Below are positions 2,491 to 64,000 of a stretch of DNA of 64,000 bases, one piece after another. The notes under the pieces were generated by a model, which had not been told where the DNA came from, made no database searches, and worked only from the letters and a program-made list of their open reading frames with translations. This DNA is from Bacteroidales bacterium (GTDB taxonomy: Bacteria; Bacteroidota; Bacteroidia; Bacteroidales; F082). The stretch is from assembly GCA_045634185.1 (NCBI GenBank), contig JAZQZR010000015.1:5940-69939 (forward strand), read 5' to 3'. Positions within the stretch are counted from its first letter, which is position 1. Each line of letters starts with the position of its first letter. The translations under genes and the position numbers were made by a program.

Positions 2491-5400
2491 TTAGTAAACC
2501 AAAATCTTAGCTGTTTCAACTTTTTCACCAGCTTGAACTCTGATGATGTATGTACCTGCTGTGAGGTTTTCAACATTGAAGCTAGCTTTGTGTGAACCTT
2601 GGTCATAGTTGCCTAATACTTGGTTCATCATCATGCGACCTGACAAGTCATAGATTTGATATGAAACTTGTGCTGATTTTTCGATGCTGAAGCTGATTGT
2701 TGCATCGCTAACGATTGGGTTAGGATAGATGCTCATGTCAGATGTGTTAGCAACGATATTTTCTTCAACATTGATTTCGCTATTTTCAACTTTGTAAGTA
2801 TCACATTTGTATAAACCTCTACCGTATGTTGCGATGTAGATAACGCCTTCATTGAAGATGCCAGGATATTCTGTTGTTACAACATCACCAACTTCGTCAA
2901 CGAGGTGGATGTATTTATTGTCGTGGTTAGCTAATATTTGTTGTTTGATATCCATTACAGGGATGTTAGCGATAACTGCATCTTGTGTCCATGTTGACAT
3001 ATTGTCTGATGTGTAGATACCGTTTTCTGTACCGAGGATAACTTTGCCTGTTGTCTTTTCAATGAGACTTGAGTAAACTGGCATTGCTGGTAAGTTACCT
3101 TGTTTTGATGTGAATGATGCACCACCGTTTGTTGAGTAGTATACATAATCTGTATTACCATAGTTACCTAAAGTAACAACAATATTGTCTGAATTTTCTG
3201 GATCGATAGCGATGCTTGTGATAGCGCGGCCTTCGAATTCTGTTGCATCTAATTCAGCTGATGGGATAGCAGATGTTTTGATTGTAGCAACTTTAATAGT
3301 ATCGCTCCAAACATCGTTTTTATCTTTAGCTGTTGAAACTAAGTAGTAGTTTGAACCGAGGCTTAAGTCTTCCCATGTTTTTAATTGATATGTTGTGTAA
3401 AGTTCTTCTGCACTTTGAAGTTCGTCAACGATAGCTTCTAAGCCCATATCTTCGTATTGAGCTTCTGTGTATAAGTTGTAGTTGAAACCACCAACATATT
3501 TATTAGGAGTTACTCTTGTTTTGATGAATGTTCCGCCTAATGCTTCAACTTTGATTGTTGTTTCTGCGATTGAGTCGCCGAGTGAGCTTGTTGATGGGAT
3601 ATCTGTTAAACCTAATGCGAGTTCGCTTGTTACAGCTTCTGATAAACTTTCATATTTGTAGATGTTGCCATCGATAGTACCAACGTAAGCTACGTCGCCG
3701 TCAGCTGAGATTGATAAAGCGTTAGGAATGCCGTTGATTGTACCTATTTTCCACCAATCGACTAATCTGTCGAACATTAAAGCGTCTCTTGTCATATATA
3801 CAGCACCTTCAACTGCTACCATGAATGTAGAAGAGATGATGTCTTGTACTTCGATTGAATCGCCAACTGCTAATGCTTCTGTGAGTTGATATTCGAATGG
3901 ATATTCTGAGTTGTTACTCTTAATCAAAACTGTTGAACCAGCTGGAGCATCGATAGTATCTCTGTTGATATATTTTGCTGTAAGAGGAGATTTTGTATCG
4001 TTATAGTTTTCAAACAATGCGATAGGAGTTCTGAAAGCGTTGCTGTTTGAAATGTATGCTGATGATTCTGTTGCTGAATATGAGAAGTTTTCTTTGTCGT
4101 AGTCAACACCTGCAGTTTGTGTTCTGAAGATTGGAGTACCAATGCTATAACCGCCTGTTACTGTTACGTACATTGCGTTAGGGTTGATTGTTGACATAGC
4201 ACAAGGACCTGCTGCTTTTGTGAAGTCGAATGCTCCATATGTTTCAGCAGCATTTGTTGATGCGTTGTCATTAGGGAATATAGCATTACCAGCTTGTGTT
4301 TCTGCATTGATTGAAGCGTCACCGATAACGTGGATTGTACCATGATCGAGGCTAGCGCCAATACTTGCATTGTTGTCTTTACCTGTGAAAGCAACGCTGA
4401 ACATTCTTGCTACTGATGTGTGGTTTTCAGCATCAAACATATAACGGTTCATGCCTTCGAATTGGTAACCAGTTGCTGCGCTGCATGTGCCTTTGAATAC
4501 ACCGCCTTCGCTACCGACGAAGAATTCGTTAATGTTATTTGGATTGAATGTAATGCTTTGGATACCTGTGTGGATATATGTATAATTGTAGTATGATACA
4601 CCACTTGATTGAGATACCTGGAATGCATTGCCATTTGATAAGCATTCTAATCTGTAGATGCCATCGCCGAATTGGTCATACATAACCCATAAGTTAAGAC
4701 CGCCGATTAAAAGTTTTCTTGGGTCGTTAGGATAAACTGCGATAGCGTTGTCTAATAAACCGCGTGAACCGAAAATGTCATAGATTGTAGTTGCTGTATA
4801 AGCTGTTTGCCATGTTGCACCGTGGTCGCTAGTCATATAGATGTTGCCTGTTCCGTATGTTGATGTGAGGTAAGCAACATATATAATGTTGTGATCTGAT
4901 GGAGCAGCAGCTAACATTTTGTAATTTTCATCTTTTGGCAACATGTTTTCTTCACCTGTTGTAACGATTTCAAAACCGTTAGCTGTTGACATATAAACGT
5001 CTGTACCAACAACAGCGATGATGTCACCGTCTGCACATGTTTCAACACCAAAAGCTTCTCCTTCGATTAATGTTGACCATCCGTTGTCATAACATTTGAC
5101 ACCTTCATTTGTAGCAGCGTAAACTTTGTTGCCATAAACTGCTAAATCATTAACGAATGTTGATGTGCTTTCGATTTGTGTTAATGTTTCACCTTCTAAT
5201 TTGTAGATACCACTACCTACGAAGCTGCTTTCATAGTTAAGGTCTGAGAGACCGTTTTGGTTGTGAGCGCCGCGGCCGTCACCTGTACCAACGTAAATAG
5301 TGCCATCTTCAGTTTGAGCTATGCAGCTAACCATTAAGTTAGAACCGATAGTCTTCCATGTGATACCACCGTTAACTGACTTGAAGACACCGCCACCCAT

Positions 5401-22005: not shown

Positions 22006-22080
22006 GGTGCTGTAGTTCAGTTTGGTTAGAATGCCTGCCTGTCACGCAGGAGGTCGCGAGTTCGAGTCTCGTCAGCACCG
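22006..22080 (+). tRNA. tRNA-Asp (anticodon GUC)
   Basis: Hand-folded cloverleaf. Acceptor GGTGCTG/CAGCACC, anticodon stem CCTGC/GCAGG with loop CTGTCAC, T-arm GCGAG-TTCGAGT-CTCGT. No CCA is encoded. Confidence 0.9.
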
Positions 22081-22083
22081 CAG

Positions 22084-22160: not shown

Positions 22161-22194
22161 ACTTGTAGTCTTGTAGTCATGTTGTCTTGTAGTC
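22161..22194. repeat. 34-nt CTTGTAGT-type stutter block
   Basis: ACTTGTAGTCTTGTAGTCATGTTGTCTTGTAGTC followed by T8. It has the same length and the same ends as the block at 63474-63507. Confidence 0.9.
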
Positions 22195-22204
22195 TTTTTT
22201 TTCC

Positions 22205-23405: not shown

Positions 23406-23431
23406 TTAACAGCTAAATTTCAGTTTGTCTT

Positions 23432-23519
23432 GGGCGTTCCGGCAAAGCCGTCGGGCTTTCCGCTATATCTTTTTCCGCTTCGCTCCAAAAGGATGCCGCT
23501 CCAATCCCTAACGCATTGG
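23432..23519 (+). repeat. GC-rich interspersed element, copy A
   Basis: GGGCGTTCCGGCAAAGCCGTCGGGCTTTCCGCTATATCTTTTTCCGCTTCGCTCCAAAAGGATGCCGCTCCAATCCCTAACGC. It matches three other copies in the window. Confidence 0.9.
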
Positions 23520-23577
23520 TGGCGACGAGTCCCAAACTGCTAGCAATGAAAAATGGTCGCTGCTACAGCAAAAAAAT

Positions 23578-23607
23578 CTGTTGTCCGTTGTCCGTTGTCC
23601 GTTGTCT
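23578..23607. repeat. GTTGTCC stutter (x3-4)
   Basis: CTGTTGTCCGTTGTCCGTTGTCCGTTGTC followed by a T-run, immediately upstream of a -7 box. Confidence 0.9.
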
Positions 23608-30933: not shown

Positions 30934-31060
30934 TTAAAGTTTAGAGTGTAAAGTTTAGAGTGTAGAGTAGTTGAAAGTTTATATAAATTCAAAGACTCTA
31001 CACTTTATTCTATAAACTCTACACCCTACACCCTACACTCTACACCATAAACACTACACT
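30934..31060. repeat. stutter palindrome, TAGAGTGTA / TACACTCTA word family
   Basis: The left arm is repeated AGTTTAGAGTGTA and the right arm is repeated CTCTACAC/CCTACAC. The arms are imperfect reverse complements of each other. Confidence 0.85.
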
Positions 31061-31063
31061 AAA

Positions 31064-32476
31064 ATGATAACATTCTCAATAGCCTTAATAATCCTCGTCT
31101 TAGGATATTTCATCTACGGAAGATATATCAGCCGTATGTTCGGCGTTGACGAGAAACGTGCTACTCCGGCAGTGACAAAAAACGACGGCGTCGATTATAT
31201 CGAGATGCCTACATGGAAAATCTTCATGATACAATTCCTTAACATCGCTGGACTTGGTCCAATCTTCGGAGCTATCATGGGAGCGAAGTTCGGAACGTCG
31301 TCATATCTCTGGATTGTGCTGGGAACTATATTCGCCGGCGCCGTCCACGATTACCTCTCTGGAATGGTGTCGCTGCGTAACGACGGCGCCAGTCTCCCTC
31401 AGATAGTTGGTAAATATCTAGGAAAGAAGACAGAAAGAGTGATGATAATATTCACCTTGTTATTGATGGTGCTTGTCGTAGCTGTCTTTGTATTGCAGCC
31501 GGCGCAGCTCATTGCGGGAATGACACCTACTAATCTCAACGTATATTTCTGGGTGATTGTGATATTCGCTTATTATCTCATCGCTACCATTTTGCCAATA
31601 GACAAAGTCATCGGAAATGTATATCCTCTCTTCGGCGGAGCCTTGATGTTTATGGCGATAGGAATACTCGTCGTTCTTTTTATCAAACAACCGGAACTCC
31701 CAGAGATGTGGAACAGCTTCGGAACGAAATATGAATCGGGACCGATATTCCCTATGATGTTCATATCCATCGCCTGCGGCGCTATCAGCGGATTCCATGC
31801 CACACAGTCGCCTCTCATGGCTCGCTGCCTCAAGAATGAGAGACACGGACGTCCTGTCTTCTACGGCGCTATGGTGGTAGAAGGCATAGTCGCTTTGATA
31901 TGGGCTGCTGCTGCAACGACATTTTTCCAGGAACATGGTAGCAACTTCACCGCAGCGCAGGTGGTTGACTTCTTGTGTAAAGACTGGCTCGGCGCACTCG
32001 GCGGAATACTAGCCATCTTAGGTGTCATCGCTGCTCCTATCACTTCGGGCGATACCGCGATGCGTTCTGCACGTCTCATACTTGCCGATATGCTGCACAT
32101 GGAACAGAAGAGCATCTCTAAACGCTTGTTGCTCTGCGCTCCTTTGTTTGTGGTATCCCTCGGATTGCTTGTCTTCAGCATCGTCAACGCTAACGGATTC
32201 ACAATAATATGGCGTTATTTCTCATGGTGCAACCAGACACTCTCGGTGTTCACTCTATGGGCATTGACGGTATATCTCGTCCTTGAAAAGAAAAATTATT
32301 TCGTGACATTATTGCCGGCACTCTTTATGACTTGTGTCGTCACGACATATATCTGCATCGCGCCAGAAGGATTCCAAATCAATCCTACAATCTCTTATGT
32401 GTTTGGCGGCGTTGTGACATTGGCAGCGATGTTTCTTTTCGCAAGATGGGAAAAAAGCTTAAAGCTTAAAGTTTAG
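31064..32476 (+). CDS. cstA: carbon starvation protein CstA family transporter
   Basis: 470 aa, polytopic, with the HDY and GFH motifs of the CstA family. Confidence 0.85.
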   Translation: MITFSIALIILVLGYFIYGRYISRMFGVDEKRATPAVTKNDGVDYIEMPTWKIFMIQFLNIAGLGPIFGAIMGAKFGTSSYLWIVLGTIFAGAVHDYLSGMVSLRNDGASLPQIVGKYLGKKTERVMIIFTLLLMVLVVAVFVLQPAQLIAGMTPTNLNVYFWVIVIFAYYLIATILPIDKVIGNVYPLFGGALMFMAIGILVVLFIKQPELPEMWNSFGTKYESGPIFPMMFISIACGAISGFHATQSPLMARCLKNERHGRPVFYGAMVVEGIVALIWAAAATTFFQEHGSNFTAAQVVDFLCKDWLGALGGILAILGVIAAPITSGDTAMRSARLILADMLHMEQKSISKRLLLCAPLFVVSLGLLVFSIVNANGFTIIWRYFSWCNQTLSVFTLWALTVYLVLEKKNYFVTLLPALFMTCVVTTYICIAPEGFQINPTISYVFGGVVTLAAMFLFARWEKSLKLKV

Positions 32477-32514
32477 AGTTCAGAGTTCAAGGTTCAGAGT
32501 TCAAAGTTCAAAAA
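32477..32514. repeat. CAGAGTTCA stutter
   Basis: AGTTCAGAGTTCAAGGTTCAGAGTTCAAAGTTCAAAAA starts directly after the cstA stop codon. Confidence 0.9.
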
Positions 32515-32523
32515 TTATGCATT

Positions 32524-34338
32524 ATGAATTATGAATTATGCATTAACGACAATGTTAAGGATTTTATAAAAAAACATCTGAAAGACGATGTCAACAAATT
32601 GGCGTTGTCGAAGTTCCCGGAAGGCATCGACAGGGAATTTGTCATCCGACAGATTCATGCGCGTCAGGTGTTGGACAAGAAGTTGCCATCATGGGCGGGA
32701 AACGATGAACTCATTTTCCCTAAAAAACTGTCGTTGGAACAATGTTCGTCCGAACTCACCGCAAAATATAAAACGACTCTGTTATCCACGAAAGCACACG
32801 AAACCACACGAAAAGAATTTAGTGCCAATTCGTGCGATTTAGTGGATGAAGAAAAATCCACGAATCTTCACGAATCTTCACGAAAAGAATTTAGTGCCAA
32901 TTCGTGCGATTTAGTGGATGAAAAAATATCCACGAAAGCACACGAAACCACACGAAAAGAATTTAGTGGCAATTCGTGCGATTTAGTGGATGAAGAAAAA
33001 TCCACGAAACCACACGAAACTTCACGAAAAGGATTTAGTGCAGATTCGTGCAATTTAGTGGATGAAGATTTAGTGGAAGAAAAGTTATCCACGAATCTTC
33101 ACGAATCTTCACGAAAAGAATTTAGTGCCAATTCGTGCAATTTAGTGGATGAAAAGTTGTCTACGAAATCACACGAAATCACACGAAAAGAATTTAGTGC
33201 CAATTCGTGCAATTTAGCGGATGAAAAAATATCCACGAAACCCCACGAAACTTCACGAAAAGAATTTAGTGCCGATTCGTGCAATTTAGTGGATGAACAT
33301 TTAGTGGATGAAAAGAGAATATTAGTGGACCTCACTGGCGGCATGGGTGTCGACACGGCTTTTCTATCTGATGATTTTGATAAGGCATATTACGTGGAGA
33401 TGCAGGAGGAACTATGCGAGATAGCAAAGCATAATTTTAAGATTCTCAATAAAAATATTGAAGTCGTCAACGATAACGCTGAGCATTTCCTAACAATATG
33501 CGACAAAGCAGATTGCATCTATCTCGACCCCGCTCGTCGCGACGAATACGGTCGTAAGATGGTCTCGCTTCATGATTGCTCGCCTGATACTGCTGAACTA
33601 CAAGACATCTTATTAGAGAAGGCGAAGACTGTCATAGTGAAACTTTCTCCTATGCTCGATATTGATATTGTCAAGAAAGAGTTAAAGAATATTAAGGAAA
33701 TACATGTCGTCGCTGTTAGAAATGAATGTAAAGAACTTGTTGTGGTTCTTGGTCAACAGACAACAGACAACGGACAACAGACTTCTTTCACGGCTCACGG
33801 ACCGAAGTTCATGGCAATAGATTTACGTGAGGGATGGAATTTCTCTTTCACTGAAGACGAAGAACAAAATGCTGAATGGACATTGGCTGATACTGTCGGG
33901 AAATATCTCTATGAACCTGGCGTGGCTTGCATGAAAGCCGGATGCTTCAAGCTTTTGTCGCAAAAATATAATCTGGATAAACTGCATAGAAACAGTCATT
34001 TATATACTTCTGACGAATTGATGCACGATTTTCCAGGAAGAATATTTGAAGTTATAAATGCTGTTCCTTTTGATAAGAAAACGAAGAAAAACATTTGGAC
34101 TTTAAGTTTTGAAGACGCAAAGATACCAAGACACCAAAACGCAAAGAATGACTCTGCGACTCTGAGTCTCTGCGACTCTGCGACCTTAAAAAAAGCAAGC
34201 GTAGCGACTCGTAATTTCCCTCTCTCGGCAGAAGAACTGAAAAAGAACCTGGGATTACAAGACGGCAACAATTTCTATATCTTCGGCACCACGATGAAAG
34301 GCGAGAAGAAGATAGTTGTCCTGACGAAGAAAATATGA
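32524..34338 (+). CDS. class I SAM-dependent methyltransferase with a THUMP-like C-terminal domain, interrupted by repeat insertions
   Basis: 604 aa. Motif I DLTGGMGVD, then YLDPARR, and a C-terminal LYEPGVACMKAGCFK...NSHLYTSD...FPGR region. Residues ~88-265 are tandem repeats. Confidence 0.85.
   Translation: MNYELCINDNVKDFIKKHLKDDVNKLALSKFPEGIDREFVIRQIHARQVLDKKLPSWAGNDELIFPKKLSLEQCSSELTAKYKTTLLSTKAHETTRKEFSANSCDLVDEEKSTNLHESSRKEFSANSCDLVDEKISTKAHETTRKEFSGNSCDLVDEEKSTKPHETSRKGFSADSCNLVDEDLVEEKLSTNLHESSRKEFSANSCNLVDEKLSTKSHEITRKEFSANSCNLADEKISTKPHETSRKEFSADSCNLVDEHLVDEKRILVDLTGGMGVDTAFLSDDFDKAYYVEMQEELCEIAKHNFKILNKNIEVVNDNAEHFLTICDKADCIYLDPARRDEYGRKMVSLHDCSPDTAELQDILLEKAKTVIVKLSPMLDIDIVKKELKNIKEIHVVAVRNECKELVVVLGQQTTDNGQQTSFTAHGPKFMAIDLREGWNFSFTEDEEQNAEWTLADTVGKYLYEPGVACMKAGCFKLLSQKYNLDKLHRNSHLYTSDELMHDFPGRIFEVINAVPFDKKTKKNIWTLSFEDAKIPRHQNAKNDSATLSLCDSATLKKASVATRNFPLSAEELKKNLGLQDGNNFYIFGTTMKGEKKIVVLTKKI
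32785..33318 (+). repeat. Seven tandem units (5 x 72 nt, 2 x 87 nt) inside the methyltransferase CDS
   Basis: Unit starts are 32785, 32857, 32929, 33001, 33088, 33160 and 33232. Consensus: TCCACGAAAnCACACGAAAnCACACGAAAAGAATTTAGTGCCAATTCGTGCnATTTAGTGGATGAA. Confidence 0.95.
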
Positions 34339-34491
34339 ACTTTGAACTCAGACACTGATGGCTGATAGCTGACAGCTTTCAGCTAATCCGGGCGTTCCGG
34401 CGAAGCCGTCGGGCTTTCCGCTATATCTTTGCTCGCTCCGCTTACGCCTCCGCTCGCAAAGGATGCCGCTTCAATCCCTAACGCGGTGGGG
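34337..34491 (+). repeat. Left composite arm: TGAACTC and GACAGCT stutters plus GC-rich element copy B (34390-34491)
   Basis: It aligns by eye, as a reverse complement, with 35467-35602. Confidence 0.9.
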
Positions 34492-34561
34492 TGATACTAA
34501 AAAAATAGATTTTTTTATTCTGAATTTTTGAATTTCTGAGTTTTTGAGTTTCAAAAAAATA

Positions 34562-34603: not shown

Positions 34604-35395
34604 ATGAAAACAAGATTACTATTGGCATTTTGCCTTTTCGCTTTATTCACAACTGTTAAAGCTCAAGAAATTACATTCAAATATGACTTCAACGACAACT
34701 CTTTCAACGGATGGGTCGGTTACGATGCAGACGGCGACGGACATCAATGGGAGCTGCACAACTCGACAGTATCAGGCGGCATGGATGGCACTTACGGCGT
34801 TTATTCTTCATGTTACAACGCCGGAGAATTGACACCGGAAAATTATCTATATACAGCAGATACATATCTGATTACCGAGACGTCAAAATTGCATTTCTAT
34901 CATTGTCAGTCCGACTTGGTATATTTCGCTGAGAAATTCGGTGTGATAGTGTCAGAAGATGGAATCAACTTCTTGATAGTATGGCATACTACATACACCG
35001 AACCACATGCTGACGGCAAATGGGGAGAAGAATTCATCGACCTCAGCGAATTCGCAGGTAAGAATATGTATATCGGATTCCTTCACTACGACTGCAGCGG
35101 AGCTACAGCTAACGGCATCAGAATCGACAATGTCGAGTTGATGTCTGATGGCGTTTCAATAGCAGAGAACAACATTTCTTTTGAAGTGTATCCAAACCCA
35201 GTGGAAAACAGCCTTCTCATCACCAGCGATGTTGAAGTAGAAAATGTAAGCATCATAGCGATGAATGGCGCTGTCATCTACGAAGGAGCATACAACAAGA
35301 ACGGAATAGACGTTTCTGAATTAAATGCTGGAGTTTACTTCGTTAATGTTAAAAAAGGAAACGAAACAATAGTTAGACGTTTCGTTAAGAAATAA
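34604..35395 (+). CDS. T9SS-sorted secreted protein with an N-terminal choice-of-anchor-J/MAM-like domain
   Basis: 263 aa with a signal peptide. C-terminal YPNPVENSLLI...GVYFVNV sorting domain. Confidence 0.8.
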   Translation: MKTRLLLAFCLFALFTTVKAQEITFKYDFNDNSFNGWVGYDADGDGHQWELHNSTVSGGMDGTYGVYSSCYNAGELTPENYLYTADTYLITETSKLHFYHCQSDLVYFAEKFGVIVSEDGINFLIVWHTTYTEPHADGKWGEEFIDLSEFAGKNMYIGFLHYDCSGATANGIRIDNVELMSDGVSIAENNISFEVYPNPVENSLLITSDVEVENVSIIAMNGAVIYEGAYNKNGIDVSELNAGVYFVNVKKGNETIVRRFVKK

Positions 35396-35450: not shown

Positions 35451-35466
35451 TATTTGCGGGGAGGAT

Positions 35467-35622
35467 GCGTTAGGGATTGGAGCGGCATCCTTTTGAAGCG
35501 GAGCGGAAAAAGATATAGCGGAAAGCCCGACGGCAGAGCCGGAACGCCCAAATTAGCTGTCAGCTGTCAGCTGTCAGCCATCAGTGTCAGAGTTCATAGT
35601 TCAGAATTCAGAGTTCAAAAAA
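35467..35622 (-). repeat. Right composite arm: GC-rich element copy C (35467-35549, inverted) plus AGCTGTC and CAGAGTTCA stutters
   Basis: Its reverse complement matches the left arm block for block. Confidence 0.9.
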
Positions 35623-35660
35623 TAATTCCTCATTCCTAACTCCAAATTCCTAATTTTTCA

Positions 35661-38555: not shown

Positions 38556-38655
38556 TAGTGTAAAGTTGAGAGAGTAGAGTTTAGAGTAGTTAGATGTGTA
38601 TACTATCAACTGCTTTAAACTCTACACTTTACACTCTACACTTTAAACTAATAAT
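38556..38655. repeat. stutter palindrome, TAGAGT/ACTCTA word family
   Basis: The left arm is GTGTAAAGTTGAGAGAGTAGAGTTTAGAGTAG and the right arm is CTTTAAACTCTACACTTTACACTCTACACTTTAAAC. Confidence 0.85.
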
Positions 38656-40377: not shown

Positions 40378-40514
40378 GAAGACTACAAGACTACAAGTTA
40401 AAGCCTTAAAGTTTCAAAATCTCAGGATGTGATTCTAAATACATGTCTCGTAATGGTATGCTTAAAATAAAGCAGACATCTATTAGACTGAGGTTGTATT
40501 TTCTATCACATCCT

Positions 40515-45130: not shown

Positions 45131-45277
45131 ACAAATTCTTTTATTCAAACGTACACCTTTAATTAAAAAAAAACTCAAAATCTCAGAATCTCATAAACTC
45201 ATATTAAGAACTTTCGGACCTTTATGTCTTTATGCCTTTTTTTGATTTTTTTGAATTCTGTTATTTTAAAAAAGTCT

Positions 45278-48641: not shown

Positions 48642-48745
48642 TTAGAGTCGAGTTATCTTAATTTTTTTTGAACAATTTAAAAACCTATTTGTTAAAAATA
48701 CACTCTACACTATAAACTCTACACTCTGCAAAAAACTTTTTTAAA

Positions 48746-49645
48746 ATGGAATACAAAGATTACTACAAAATATTAGGAGTGGAGCGTTCTGCTTCGCAGG
48801 ATGACATCAAGAAGGCTTATCGTAAGCTGGCGGTGAAATATCATCCCGACAAAAATCCTGACGATAATGTAGCTGAAGAAAAATTCAAGGAGATTTCAGA
48901 GGCCTATCAGGTTATAGGCAACCCAGACTCTCGCAAGAAGTATGATGAACTCGGCGCTAACTGGAAACAGTATGAGAACGCAGGCTTCGGCGGTGGTGCG
49001 CATGGCTTCAACGCGAGCGGCTTCTCCGACTTCTTCGATATGTTCTTCGGTGGACAAGGCGGCGGTGCAGGTTTTGATTTCAGTAACTTCATGGGCGGAA
49101 TGGGCGGCGGCCGTCGTTCCACACGTCCTGCTAAAGGCAGCGATATCAATGCAACGATAAATCTTACCTTATTGGAAGCGTATCAGGGTTCGCAGCGTCT
49201 CATCGACGTGGGCGGCAGCTCGATTAAAATAACAATAAAAGAAGGCGTACGCGACGGACAGATACTTCGTCTCAAAGGAAAAGGAAACCCTGGAAGAAAC
49301 GGAGGCGAAAACGGCGACCTTCTCATAAAAGTCGTCATTATGAACGACCCTGTCTATCAACGCGACGGCGACGACCTCATAAGAAATGTCAACATTGACG
49401 TTTATACCGCGATACTCGGTGGCAAGATAACTATCACCACACTCAAAGGTGATGTCAATGTGCCGATAAAAGCACAGACACAGAATAACAGCACTTTGCG
49501 ACTCAAAGGCCTGGGAATGCCGCATTACGGAAAAGAAGGCGCAGGAGCATTGCTGCTTAAAGTGCAGATACTGCTGCCTGAACACTTCTCGGCAAAAGAA
49601 CTGGAACTTATAAAGGAAGCATACGAGAAATCAATAAATCAATAA
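48746..49645 (+). CDS. cbpA: J-domain co-chaperone (CbpA-like; no zinc finger)
   Basis: 299 aa with a J domain (HPD motif), a G/F-rich linker and a DnaJ C-terminal domain. Confidence 0.85.
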
Positions 49646-49664
49646 ATTATAACTTAATAAGTGA

Positions 49665-63204: not shown

Positions 63205-63207
63205 AAA

Positions 63208-63241
63208 GACTACAAGTCTACAAGACAACAAGACTACAAGT
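63208..63241 (+). repeat. 34-nt ACTACAAG stutter block, left copy of an inverted pair
   Basis: GACTACAAGTCTACAAGACAACAAGACTACAAGT. The reverse complement of 63474-63507 matches at 32 of 34 positions. Confidence 0.95.
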
Positions 63242-63288
63242 AGAGACGTATCAAAATTCTTTGAATTTTGCTGCGTCTCTCTTTTTTT
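63242..63288 (+). terminator. intrinsic terminator after rny
   Basis: Outer stem AGAGACG/CGTCTCT, inner stem AAAATTC/GAATTTT, then a T-run. Confidence 0.75.
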
Positions 63289-63473
63289 GTCTATTATACC
63301 TTTTTTTAAATCTCAGAAACTCAAAACCTCAGAATCTCAGAAGAACTTTGAACTCTAAACCTTTTTAGTAATGAAGTGATGTGAAAAATTTCTCAACCCT
63401 GAAATCCTCCATCCACGAAATCGCACGAAACTACACGAAATTTTTTTTCTGTGAAAACCACATCACCCCAACA

Positions 63474-63507
63474 ACTTGTAGTCATGTAGTCTTGTAGACT
63501 TGTAGTC
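63474..63507 (-). repeat. 34-nt CTTGTAGT stutter block, right copy of the inverted pair
   Basis: ACTTGTAGTCATGTAGTCTTGTAGACTTGTAGTC. Confidence 0.95.
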
Positions 63508-63517
63508 TTCTTTCTTT

Positions 63518-63610
63518 GGGCGTTCCGTCTCCGCTTCGCTCCGCCGTCGGGCTTTCCGCTATATCTTTTTCCGCTGCGCTCCAAAAGGATGCCGCTCCAA
63601 TCCCTAACGC
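63518..63610 (+). repeat. GC-rich interspersed element, copy D
   Basis: GGGCGTTCCG-TCTCCGCTTCGCTCC-GCCGTCGGGCTTTCCGCTATATCTTTTTCCGCTGCGCTCCAAAAGGATGCCGCTCCAATCCCTAACGC. Confidence 0.9.
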
Positions 63611-63655
63611 ACTGGAGAATTCTAGAACTTTAGAATTCTAGAACCTCAGAAAATT

Positions 63656-64000
63656 CTAAAGTTCACTCTCTGCGTCTCTGCGACTTTGCGACTCTGTGTC
63701 TTTCTTAATCTCAACAAAAAACGTTGTTCCTTTCCCGACTTCGCTTTCGAAAGTGATGTTTCCTCCTAATGTCTCCAAAATGTCGTAAACGATGGAAAGT
63801 CCTACTCCCATTCCGCTGGATTTAGTGGTGAAGTTAGGCATGAAGATTTTCTTCTTCTCCTCCTCGCCTATTCCGCATCCGTTGTCACTAATCTCAATTC
63901 TATATCTGCCTCCATTATCCGTTATCCTAAATTCAATGTGGCCGTCTTCTTTTTTGCCGATGGCTTGTATTGCGTTCTTCAGAATGTTTCCAAAGACGAT
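63656..64000 (-). CDS. sensor histidine kinase, C-terminal HATPase_c part (N-terminus outside the window)
   Basis: The frame is open from 64000. N-box NILKNAIQA, G1 DNGCGI, G2 GMGVGLSIV. The tail KKDTESQSRRDAESEL is encoded by a stutter repeat. Confidence 0.85.
   Translation of the reverse strand: MVFGNILKNAIQAIGKKEDGHIEFRITDNGGRYRIEISDNGCGIGEEEKKKIFMPNFTTKSSGMGVGLSIVYDILETLGGNITFESEVGKGTTFFVEIKKDTESQSRRDAESEL

Follow-up and report, generated by a model that had tools for sequence, protein, structure and literature searches.

Flavo-1 copies in an uncultured Bacteroidales genome: comparative structure, strain turnover and adjacency to short tandem arrays

A stretch of 64,000 nt from an uncultured Bacteroidales bacterium (GenBank assembly GCA_045634185.1, contig JAZQZR010000015.1, positions 5,940 to 69,939; below, the window) holds a GC-rich element at 23432-23519, 34390-34491, 35467-35549 and 63518-63610, and raises the question of what a segment repeated between genes in both orientations might be. 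A preliminary description, made from the letters alone, left the element without a named family and offered a choice between a repetitive extragenic palindrome (REP) or bacterial interspersed mosaic element (BIME), a miniature inverted-repeat transposable element (MITE), a small structured RNA and a protein-binding module. We found that the element is real and that its family is already catalogued, as Flavo-1 (Rfam RF01705); the general idea of an interspersed structured element was right.

All four copies (copies 1 to 4, in window order) are present at these places. The conserved blocks GCCGTCGGGCTTTCCGCTATATCTTT (exact matches) and AAAGGATGCCGCTYCAATCCCTAACGC each occur four times in the window, three times on the plus strand and once on the minus strand; 0 matches were expected for either, as judged from 100 dinucleotide shuffles. 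The G+C content is 56-62% in the copies, 39% in the window as a whole and 16-45% in flanks of 100 nt, and one strand is pyrimidine-rich, as had been noted. All are intergenic, with ordinary housekeeping genes as neighbors (Table 1). The sense strand used here is the Rfam strand, which is opposite to the orientation in the preliminary description.

A search of Rfam had been proposed there, a clear hit meaning a known element. All four copies match RF01705, with scores from 40.3 to 43.6 bits around a gathering score of 42, and the element is therefore already described. Copy 3 falls below the cut-off but has the same cores and reaches 105 bits in an extended covariance model of our own (R1, below). 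The hairpin typical of RF01705, with internal loops GAUUGnAGCGG ... UAGCGGAAAGC and a variable tip, was recovered in the model alignments, the conservation and the pair counts, and the occurrence in Bacteroidota agrees with that of the family. No Rfam family other than Flavo-1, and no ribozyme family, was matched over the elements even at E<=10. ARAGORN detected only a tRNA-Asp (22006-22081) in the window and none of the elements as tRNA or tmRNA. Flavo-1 was defined computationally in 2010 from 239 instances and classed as a likely RNA; nearly all instances were in Flavobacteria, and a few came from other Bacteroidetes or from Spirochaetes (Weinberg et al., 2010; PMC2864571). It is among the most abundant Rfam entries (PMC9029176) and small RNA (sRNA) families, and has been without an assigned function, mechanism or full structure since 2010.

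The host is an abundant, heavily sampled species. More than 120 database clusters match the histidyl-tRNA synthetase (HisRS) encoded in the window at 97-99% identity; those with a name are labelled "MAG: Bacteroidales bacterium" (MAG, metagenome-assembled genome). The RNase Y is identical to a protein in a yak-caecum MAG. An exact 20-mer of the 3' arm occurs in at least 110 stretches of species-representative genomes, which come from ruminant-gut Bacteroidales MAGs, many Flavobacteriaceae genera, Lentimicrobiaceae, a Cytophagales MAG and a Chryseobacterium MAG; from one order of Bacteroidota to another the core sequence hardly changes. Synteny of the window with these species-representative loci was not found at useful identity. 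The Flavobacteriaceae relatives score 49-63 bits against RF01705 and the Bacteroidales-type copies about 40-46, so that some of the latter are missed at the cut-off. The window copies therefore lie in a peripheral, under-annotated part of the family: they are a Bacteroidales subfamily of Flavo-1 at the edge of the Rfam threshold. A phage-borne element was also considered and rejected, with a single match in 2.9 million viral contigs.

What does the element fold into? The RF01705 model consists of one long hairpin (P2) with unpaired flanks. In 118 instances laid out in Rfam sense, the architecture is leader (~12 nt)-P1-A-P2-GA-P3-G/U-P1'-CCAAA, with the consensus 5'-(leader)-U-GCGUU-A-GGGAUUGnAGCGGCAUCCUUU-[tip]-AAAGAUAUAGCGGAAAGCCC-GA-[variable hairpin]-G/U-AACGC-CCAAA-3'. 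The whole unit measures about 80-170 nt and the P2 tip from 10 to >110 nt; the tips of both P2 and P3 are variable and accept inserts. The internal loops of P2 are conserved and rich in purines, each arm having AGCGG; in Bacteroidales copies the terminal loops of P2 and P3 are built of extra AGCGR words. The inverted GCGTT...AACGC ends of the preliminary description are the covarying closing stem P1. Its two variable blocks have the sequences reported (for V1, GCAAA, GCGAA, GCTCT or TCTCCGCTTCGCTCC), and what were taken for stutter blocks are the terminal loops of P3 (V1) and P2 (V2). The window units thus share with RF01705 the P2 hairpin with its AGCGG internal loops, the phylum and the multi-copy intergenic habit, and they add to the Rfam model P1, P3 and the CCAAA tail; the Bacteroidales copies also add the 12-nt leader and the AGCGG-stutter loops.

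Model R1 combines the RF01705-type hairpin with the closing stem P1 and the third hairpin P3. It recovered 101 instances, some of them without the 20-mer used for fishing. In 98 distinct sequences, in an alignment that was fitted to the model and in which the P2 3' arm is invariant by ascertainment, 95.7% of pair cells were standard (43-53% with partners slid by 1-3 columns) and changes on both sides were found at 16 of 24 pairs; none of 500 shuffles reached the observed values. P1 covaried at all five pairs, from GCGUU/AACGC to GCAUU/AAUGC, GCGCA/UGCGC, CGGUU/AACCG and others, and P3 switched between G-C (52) and C-G (44). The P2 5' arm, which was unselected, is still at least 90% conserved save at one position. 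The covariation shows that one strand, that of the Rfam sense, is constrained to form a three-way junction. G.U outnumbered A.C at paired positions by 32 to 12, which modestly favours the Rfam-sense strand as the folding one.

Minimum free energy (MFE) folds of single copies do not give the conserved junction, and their z-scores (-1.08 to +0.90) lie near 0; the copies are not stable hairpins of the REP type, and the junction therefore rests on comparative evidence rather than on stability. The purine-rich AGCGG internal loops probably need non-canonical pairs or a partner. Strong covariation bears out the word "structured" in the preliminary description. The leader was considered as an anti-P2 strand, since it pairs with the 5' arm in MFE folds, but the complementarity in 63 copies was no better than in shuffled or upstream controls. 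A terminator-like stable hairpin was rejected on the z-scores and on the lack of a U-tract after the element. U at -1 and CCAAA after P1 are common to both lineages. Together with the G-C first pair of P1, the U(-1) and the CCA(AA) after the P1 3' strand bear a likeness, no more than that, to the determinants at -1/+1 and in CCA of RNase P substrates.

The elements are strictly intergenic and lie in either orientation relative to genes. Where both neighbors were visible, 29 placements were tandem-sense, 17 tandem-antisense, 18 convergent and 12 divergent. Only 3 of 98 copies (1/67 and 2/31) have the Bacteroidota -7 box TAnnTTTG within 60 nt upstream. The mixed orientation and the missing promoter box argue against a 5' leader, a 3' untranslated region element of fixed polarity and a gene with a canonical promoter. 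In a transcriptome study of Flavobacterium psychrophilum, Flavo-1 hits were sense, antisense or outside transcribed regions (PMC9723704). Bacteroidales copies have a semi-conserved leader (uAGCCnCCaaU or AUCGCCGCCAAU) with a T-rich run before it. Several Flavo-1 copies, including copy 3, directly follow an intrinsic terminator. Seven inverted pairs within 8 kb are head-to-head, with the 5' ends facing inward, compared with none in the opposite, tail-to-tail arrangement (p about 0.016, uncorrected for multiple looks). The genes between the head-to-head copies are housekeeping genes (KAS, BioB, PheS, a class II aminoacyl-tRNA synthetase, AsnC, HolA), and an autonomous master element at that position was rejected for this reason.

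The copies had been described as always next to "stutter words", the imperfect tandem arrays of short words in the spacers. The adjacency was confirmed, but arrays also occur in many element-free spacers of the window, and the adjacency is polar. At Bacteroidales-type loci, arrays of period 7/8 were found in 57 of 69 element-bearing spacers versus 54 of 157 others, and in Flavobacteriaceae in 4 of 29 versus 9 of 104, with spacer length unmatched in both comparisons. Of 66 non-redundant Bacteroidales copies, 45 have the start of an array in the 20 nt that follow P1, mostly at an offset of 7-10, right after CCAAA; on the 5' side an array ends within 20 nt before P1 in only 11 of the 66. The array that starts 6 nt past the copy 4 tail repeats, in inverted orientation, the array at 63206-63240, and its copy number varies between strains. 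After array masking, unique sequence was shared between loci in 7 pairs on the 3' side versus 37 on the 5' side; the shared 5' sequence is probably the leader family. Co-mobilised unique 3' flanks or a long 3' cargo were rejected, given only 7 shared pairs, with window copies 2 and 3 and L097/L100 as exceptions. In our view the element more probably ends up at the edges of arrays than generates them, because an array is already there in the empty allele of copy 3, arrays are also found where no element is, and Flavobacteriaceae copies occur without arrays.

The arrays themselves, with periods of 7-8, are pervasive in the intergenic spacers of the window. Their vocabulary includes AAGACTAC, GTTGTCC, GCTGTCA, AGAGTTC, AATTATG, CTCAGAA, GTGTAGAG, TAGAATTC and CACGAAA, and MAGs of other species use the same words. 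Within an array, reverse-complement variants of the unit often take turns (AGACT/AGTCT, TGACAG/CTGTCA), which allows small hairpins to form. Between strains with flanking proteins that are identical or 88-96% identical, the arrays are hypervariable, with blocks present or absent and changes in unit number (window 23580-23606 compared with L142-L148, and window 63206-63440 with L131-L134 and L138). At one and the same promoter-proximal position, the (GTTGTCC)n of the window gives way to (CTTGTAGT)n in other strains. Flavo-1 forms mosaics with the arrays and with further short repeat modules that lie within or beside it: G-rich stutters (GGGAACGRGAUUUGGGGACG), a GGTCACTGAGCCTGTCGAAGTGNC hairpin, GTCATTRCGAG...CTTCGCAATGAC hairpins that resemble CGTC-type REPs, and a GTAGAGACG...ATCAACGACAT module. 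Examples are found in the P2 tips of L001, L002, L009, L018 and L035 (Bacteroidales) and of L004 and L016 (Flavobacteriaceae), and in the 3' flanks of L018, L026, L041 and L059.

Does the element come and go? The preliminary description called it interspersed, its REP/BIME- or MITE-like reading implies possible mobility, and the behavior of the element agrees: strains differ in the presence, absence and truncation of copies. The dense sampling of the species allowed a comparison of orthologous spacers, and turnover was seen between strains with flanking proteins 88-100% identical. At copy 3, 98 nt (TGCGGGGAGGAT-GCGTT...AACGC-CCAAA) are missing as one block in L112, L113, L115 and L120, which retain the adhesin gene and hisS on either side. 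The junction lies between ...GCGTCTTTTTATT and TTA(T/G)CT..., right after the intrinsic terminator, and showed no target duplication beyond a possible 1-3 nt in a T/A run. The arrays downstream differ between the alleles, part of them looking inverted, and the 3' flanks of copies 3 and 2 are homologous over ~57 nt; insertion, precise excision and block replacement are for these reasons indistinguishable at this site. In the spacer of copy 2, the same strains (P0108) carry a different, oppositely oriented Flavo-1 upstream of the adhesin gene, and the closest strains (L160/L161) have the window arrangement with a much longer P2 insert. Copy 1 is present in L141-L144 (peptidase 92-96% identical) and absent in the 88%-identity lineage L146-L148, where the spacer is ~90 nt shorter and otherwise diverged. 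Copy 4 is kept in strains with identical RNase Y; its P3 differs by a 10-nt unit in L132, and its P2 tip is 68 nt longer in L131.

Truncated copies break at ...GGATGCCG^ (^ marks the break), where an array abuts, at GGGATTGAAGC^, with ~330 nt deleted, and at GCCGGG^, with ~170 nt deleted. Two independent truncations break within 1 nt of each other in the conserved AGCGG word of the 5' arm (AG^CGGC and AGC^GGC; n = 2), a coincidence that may reflect a cleavage site, microhomology-mediated deletion or chance. In L111 an IS3-family element abuts the 3' arm of a copy. Sites A and B, considered as empty sites, proved to be internal deletions starting inside the element, and the spacer downstream of cytidylate kinase was too rearranged to serve as a clean empty site. 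Contigs often end at or near Flavo-1 and the arrays, as in L141 (inside copy 1) and in L132-L140 (300-530 nt after RNase Y); such ends are expected of a dispersed repeat, since repeats fragment the assemblies of this species.

Membership of the REP/BIME or MITE classes, as first suggested, did not hold. In Flavo-1 there is neither a GT[AG]G foot nor a short, stable palindrome, its inverted repeat is only the 5-bp P1 where a MITE has ~10 bp or more, and the copy 3 junction shows no visible target duplication. With REP/REPIN systems, mobilized by REP-associated tyrosine transposases (RAYT), and with BIMEs it shares a high-copy intergenic habit, single-strand structure, presence/absence differences between strains and mosaics of short repeats; the head-to-head tendency and the use as an insertion sequence (IS) target are further likenesses to REPs and REPINs. 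Unlike these, it has neither a GT[AG]G nor a GCTAG foot, it is an interrupted three-way junction of ~80-170 nt and not a palindrome of 20-40 nt, its fold is weak, and its sequence is conserved across orders rather than species-specific. CGTC-tagged REPs, with 8-9 bp stems and 4-5 nt loops, have been reported also in Bacteroidetes and Spirochaetes; they resemble sequences nested in the P2 loops of some Flavobacteriaceae copies, and Flavo-1 was rejected as a member. The enterobacterial repetitive intergenic consensus (ERIC) elements, or intergenic repeat units (IRU), of Enterobacteria are imperfect palindromes of ~100+ nt that cross genera, lie in either orientation and have internal insert variants; neither a transposase nor an array association is known for them. 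Flavo-1 is like them in its cross-genus conservation, intergenic placement in either orientation and inserts at fixed internal positions, and differs in its unrelated sequence and phylum and in forming a three-way junction where ERIC is a two-armed palindrome. The palindrome-associated transposable elements (PATEs) derived from IS200/IS605, and other derivatives of single-strand transposons, offer folded single-strand ends, a strand-specific structure signal and, as at the one clean junction here, no target duplication. The two Flavo-1 hairpins, however, are dissimilar, no TnpA or TnpB was found nearby, and the single clean junction (TTTTTATT^TTA) leaves no conserved target of four or five nucleotides definable. 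By analogy, REPINs and ERIC elements appear to be the closest behavioral counterparts.

The stutter-word arrays can be compared with the short tandemly repeated repetitive (STRR) sequences of cyanobacteria. Heptamer arrays (TAACTGA) that have no known function are reported from Beggiatoaceae, Cyanobacteria and a few Bacteroidetes (PMC4679880), and are likewise intergenic, of period 7-8, with a recurring vocabulary and variable between relatives. Unlike them, the arrays studied here use many different words, often alternating with their reverse complements, and have a polar link to Flavo-1 tails. No description of a link between heptamer arrays and Flavo-1 was found in the papers searched.

Our preferred reading, with a probability of about 0.55, takes Flavo-1 for a non-autonomous intergenic module that spreads in trans, recombines and acts via a folded single strand. 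It would be propagated and homogenised in trans in the manner of REPINs and ERIC elements, by a sequence- and structure-specific enzyme, encoded by the host or by an element, that works on the folded strand; recombination between copies would add to spread and homogenisation. It would then be neither a family of independently transcribed sRNA genes nor a cis-regulatory leader, and the Bacteroidales copies would preferentially sit with the 3' tail towards the edge of a heptamer/octamer array and with a T-rich run, in many cases a terminator, on the other side. Several points weigh against this proposal. No partner enzyme was found, the genes between paired copies are housekeeping genes, and a crude HUH/Y-motif scan of 1.2 Mb around 160 loci gave no RAYT-like open reading frame (ORF); the REPs published as neighbors of RAYT genes in Bacteroidetes are short hairpins of unrelated sequence. 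A clean junction exists at one site only, with arrays downstream that differ between the alleles, and two further "absent" alleles are deletions starting inside the element. Finally, the conserved non-Watson-Crick loops and the near-identical sequence across orders would also fit a functional RNA or a protein-binding site. A more far-reaching version, which we consider rather unlikely, makes Flavo-1 one half, the visible one, of a mobile system that spans the phylum and is as yet undescribed. In it, a folded single-strand three-way junction would be moved by a conserved non-RAYT enzyme that recognises the AGCGG loops and cuts near AG^CGG, where the two independent truncations break; in gut Bacteroidales the element would integrate in a single orientation at the edges of heptamer/octamer arrays.

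The alternative that survives best is a functional structured RNA that acts wherever it is transcribed and whose copies were spread by recombination; this is possible, if on balance improbable. Such an RNA could be a sponge or docking site for an RNA-binding protein that binds the AGCGG words, or a tRNA-acceptor-like processing signal, the latter in view of the conserved U at -1, the G-C first pair and the CCA that follows P1. The covariation together with the conserved purine-rich loops speaks for it, as do the weak fold, which suggests the need for a partner, the extra AGCGG words in the P2 and P3 loops of Bacteroidales copies, the U at -1 and CCAAA that both lineages conserve, and the earlier classing as a likely RNA (PMC2864571). 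The excess of G.U over A.C on the Rfam strand fits as well, but G.T pairs form in single-stranded DNA too, so the strand signal is no proof of RNA. Its main difficulties lie in the placement: copies have no fixed orientation to genes and no upstream promoter box, many lie just downstream of terminators, hits in F. psychrophilum are sense, antisense or untranscribed (PMC9723704), and individual copies are dispensable between strains.

A site acting at the DNA level, that is, a cruciform-prone or protein-bound module in the way that BIMEs bind integration host factor (IHF), gyrase and DNA polymerase I (Pol I), strikes us as quite unlikely. Such a site would organise the nucleoid, shield transcription units from each other's supercoiling, or give gene cassettes a hotspot for recombination. 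Orientation-free, strictly intergenic placement and the mosaics with other modules and arrays agree with such a site. So do the IS3-family element abutting a copy in L111 and the spacer between the methyltransferase gene and hisS, a cassette hotspot in which the adhesin gene, further genes, an IS and a 116-bp array are variably present. Binding to double-stranded DNA, however, needs no compensatory changes that preserve intrastrand pairing in three stems, would not yield the asymmetry of G.U over A.C, and the stems are too interrupted for easy cruciform extrusion.

That Flavo-1 is the cognate REP of a RAYT (TnpA_REP) transposase, in a true REP/REPIN system, is very improbable. A Bacteroidetes-specific RAYT subclass (2.6) with "atypical secondary structures" does exist, and the high copy number, the hairpin content, the lack of visible target duplication and the 7 to 0 excess of head-to-head pairs would suit it. 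The REPs published for this subclass are nevertheless hairpins of 24-49 nt, each specific to its species and in most cases bearing a foot of the GCTAG/GCTGG type, and the Flavo-1 core words are absent from that table, for which reason Flavo-1 was rejected as an atypical REP of subclass 2.6. The missing GT[AG]G foot, the conservation across orders (REPs co-evolve with each RAYT) and the empty motif scan around the 160 loci point the same way. A local duplication or chance similarity confined to the window, for which only the 3' flank shared by copies 2 and 3 could be cited, can be dismissed, since the exact 20-mer occurs in at least 110 stretches of many genera and 0 chance matches of the conserved blocks are expected in the window.

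Table 1. Flavo-1 units, their parts, paired copies and short tandem arrays in the window (arrays: imperfect, periods 7-8; TRF, Tandem Repeats Finder).
Feature	Position	Strand	Context, score or remark
Copy 1, full unit with leader and tail	23429-23526	-	between M20 peptidase and nucleosidase; Rfam 42.0 bits, R1 106.4 bits
Copy 1, tail CCAAG	23429-23433	-
Copy 1, P1 3' strand	23434-23438	-
Copy 1, P1 5' strand	23510-23514	-
Copy 1, leader	23515-23526	-
Copy 2, full unit, 33-nt P2 terminal insert	34387-34496	-	between THUMP-type methyltransferase and adhesin-like protein sorted by the type IX secretion system (T9SS); Rfam 43.6 bits, R1 90.0 bits
Copy 3, full unit	35455-35552	+	between T9SS-sorted adhesin-like protein and HisRS; Rfam 40.3 bits (< cut-off 42), R1 105.4 bits
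Copy 3, leader	35455-35466	+
Copy 3, P1	35467-35471	+	paired with 35543-35547
Copy 3, P2 arms	35473-35494, 35508-35528	+
Copy 3, P2 loop	35495-35507	+
Copy 3, P3	35531-35534	+	paired with 35538-35541
Copy 3, tail CCAAA	35548-35552	+
Copy 4, full unit, long P3 loop (GGAGCGAAGCGGAGA)	63515-63622	-	downstream of RNase Y; Rfam 42.1 bits, R1 92.7 bits
Head-to-head pair	34387-35552		copies 2 and 3; other pairs in L013, L027, L052, L063, L064, L087
Coinciding breaks			L121/L122/L124/L126 about 3650-3720; L153, L155, L157, L159
(GCTGTCA)n and (AGAGTTC)n, directly 3' of copy 3	35553-35617	+	TRF; related array at empty allele
Array and linker, directly 3' of copy 2 in element sense	34336-34386	-	homologous to copy 3 flank
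(AAGACTAC)n, written on minus strand	63475-63509	-	TRF; 6 nt past copy 4 tail
Array	1475-1509
Array	22162-22196
Array	23580-23606
Array	30935-31060
Array	32468-32545
Array	34355-34377
Array	34518-34552
Array	35555-35655
Array	38560-38649
Array	40379-40397
Array	45171-45203
Array	48698-48727
Array	49628-49660
Array	63206-63240
Array	63309-63342
Array	63414-63441
Array	63616-63701

Further variability was observed around copies 2 and 3. The adhesin-like gene (34604-35395; Cleaved_Adhesin and Por_Secre_tail domains) between the methyltransferase gene and hisS is bracketed in the window by the two head-to-head copies. Its presence varies between strains (loci L111-L126 and L150-L161), and in some it is replaced by other genes (79 and 528 aa) or joined by an IS3-family element. 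Strains of the P0108 type have a tandem array of ~116 bp units in 5 copies between the methyltransferase gene and Flavo-1 (L112, 2100-2620), which the window lacks. Within the window, a 72-nt tandem repeat of ~7 copies (32784-33316), also seen as super-units of 159/231 nt, is composed of CACGAAA words together with ATCCAC/GTGGAT segments that are inverted. The repeat is in frame with an ORF at 32524-34338 (604 aa) and falls in its 5' part; Pfam domains begin only at residue 258 of this ORF. The orthologue has 426-473 aa in other strains, and the window is ~370 nt longer here than L160.

The three-way-junction extension, the strain-level dynamics and the polar link to arrays are absent from the literature that we found. 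These three additions, namely the junction model, the gain, loss and truncation of copies between strains and the array polarity, make the static Flavo-1 motif a testable system. For annotation, such copies are to be labelled Flavo-1, spurious ORFs across them disregarded, and contig breaks in metagenomes expected there. The results point to an intergenic hypervariability in ruminant-gut Bacteroidales that is overlooked by gene-centred comparisons. If Flavo-1 does belong to a mobile system that integrates at array edges, two long-unexplained intergenic features, Flavo-1 itself (2010) and the heptamer arrays, would be linked.

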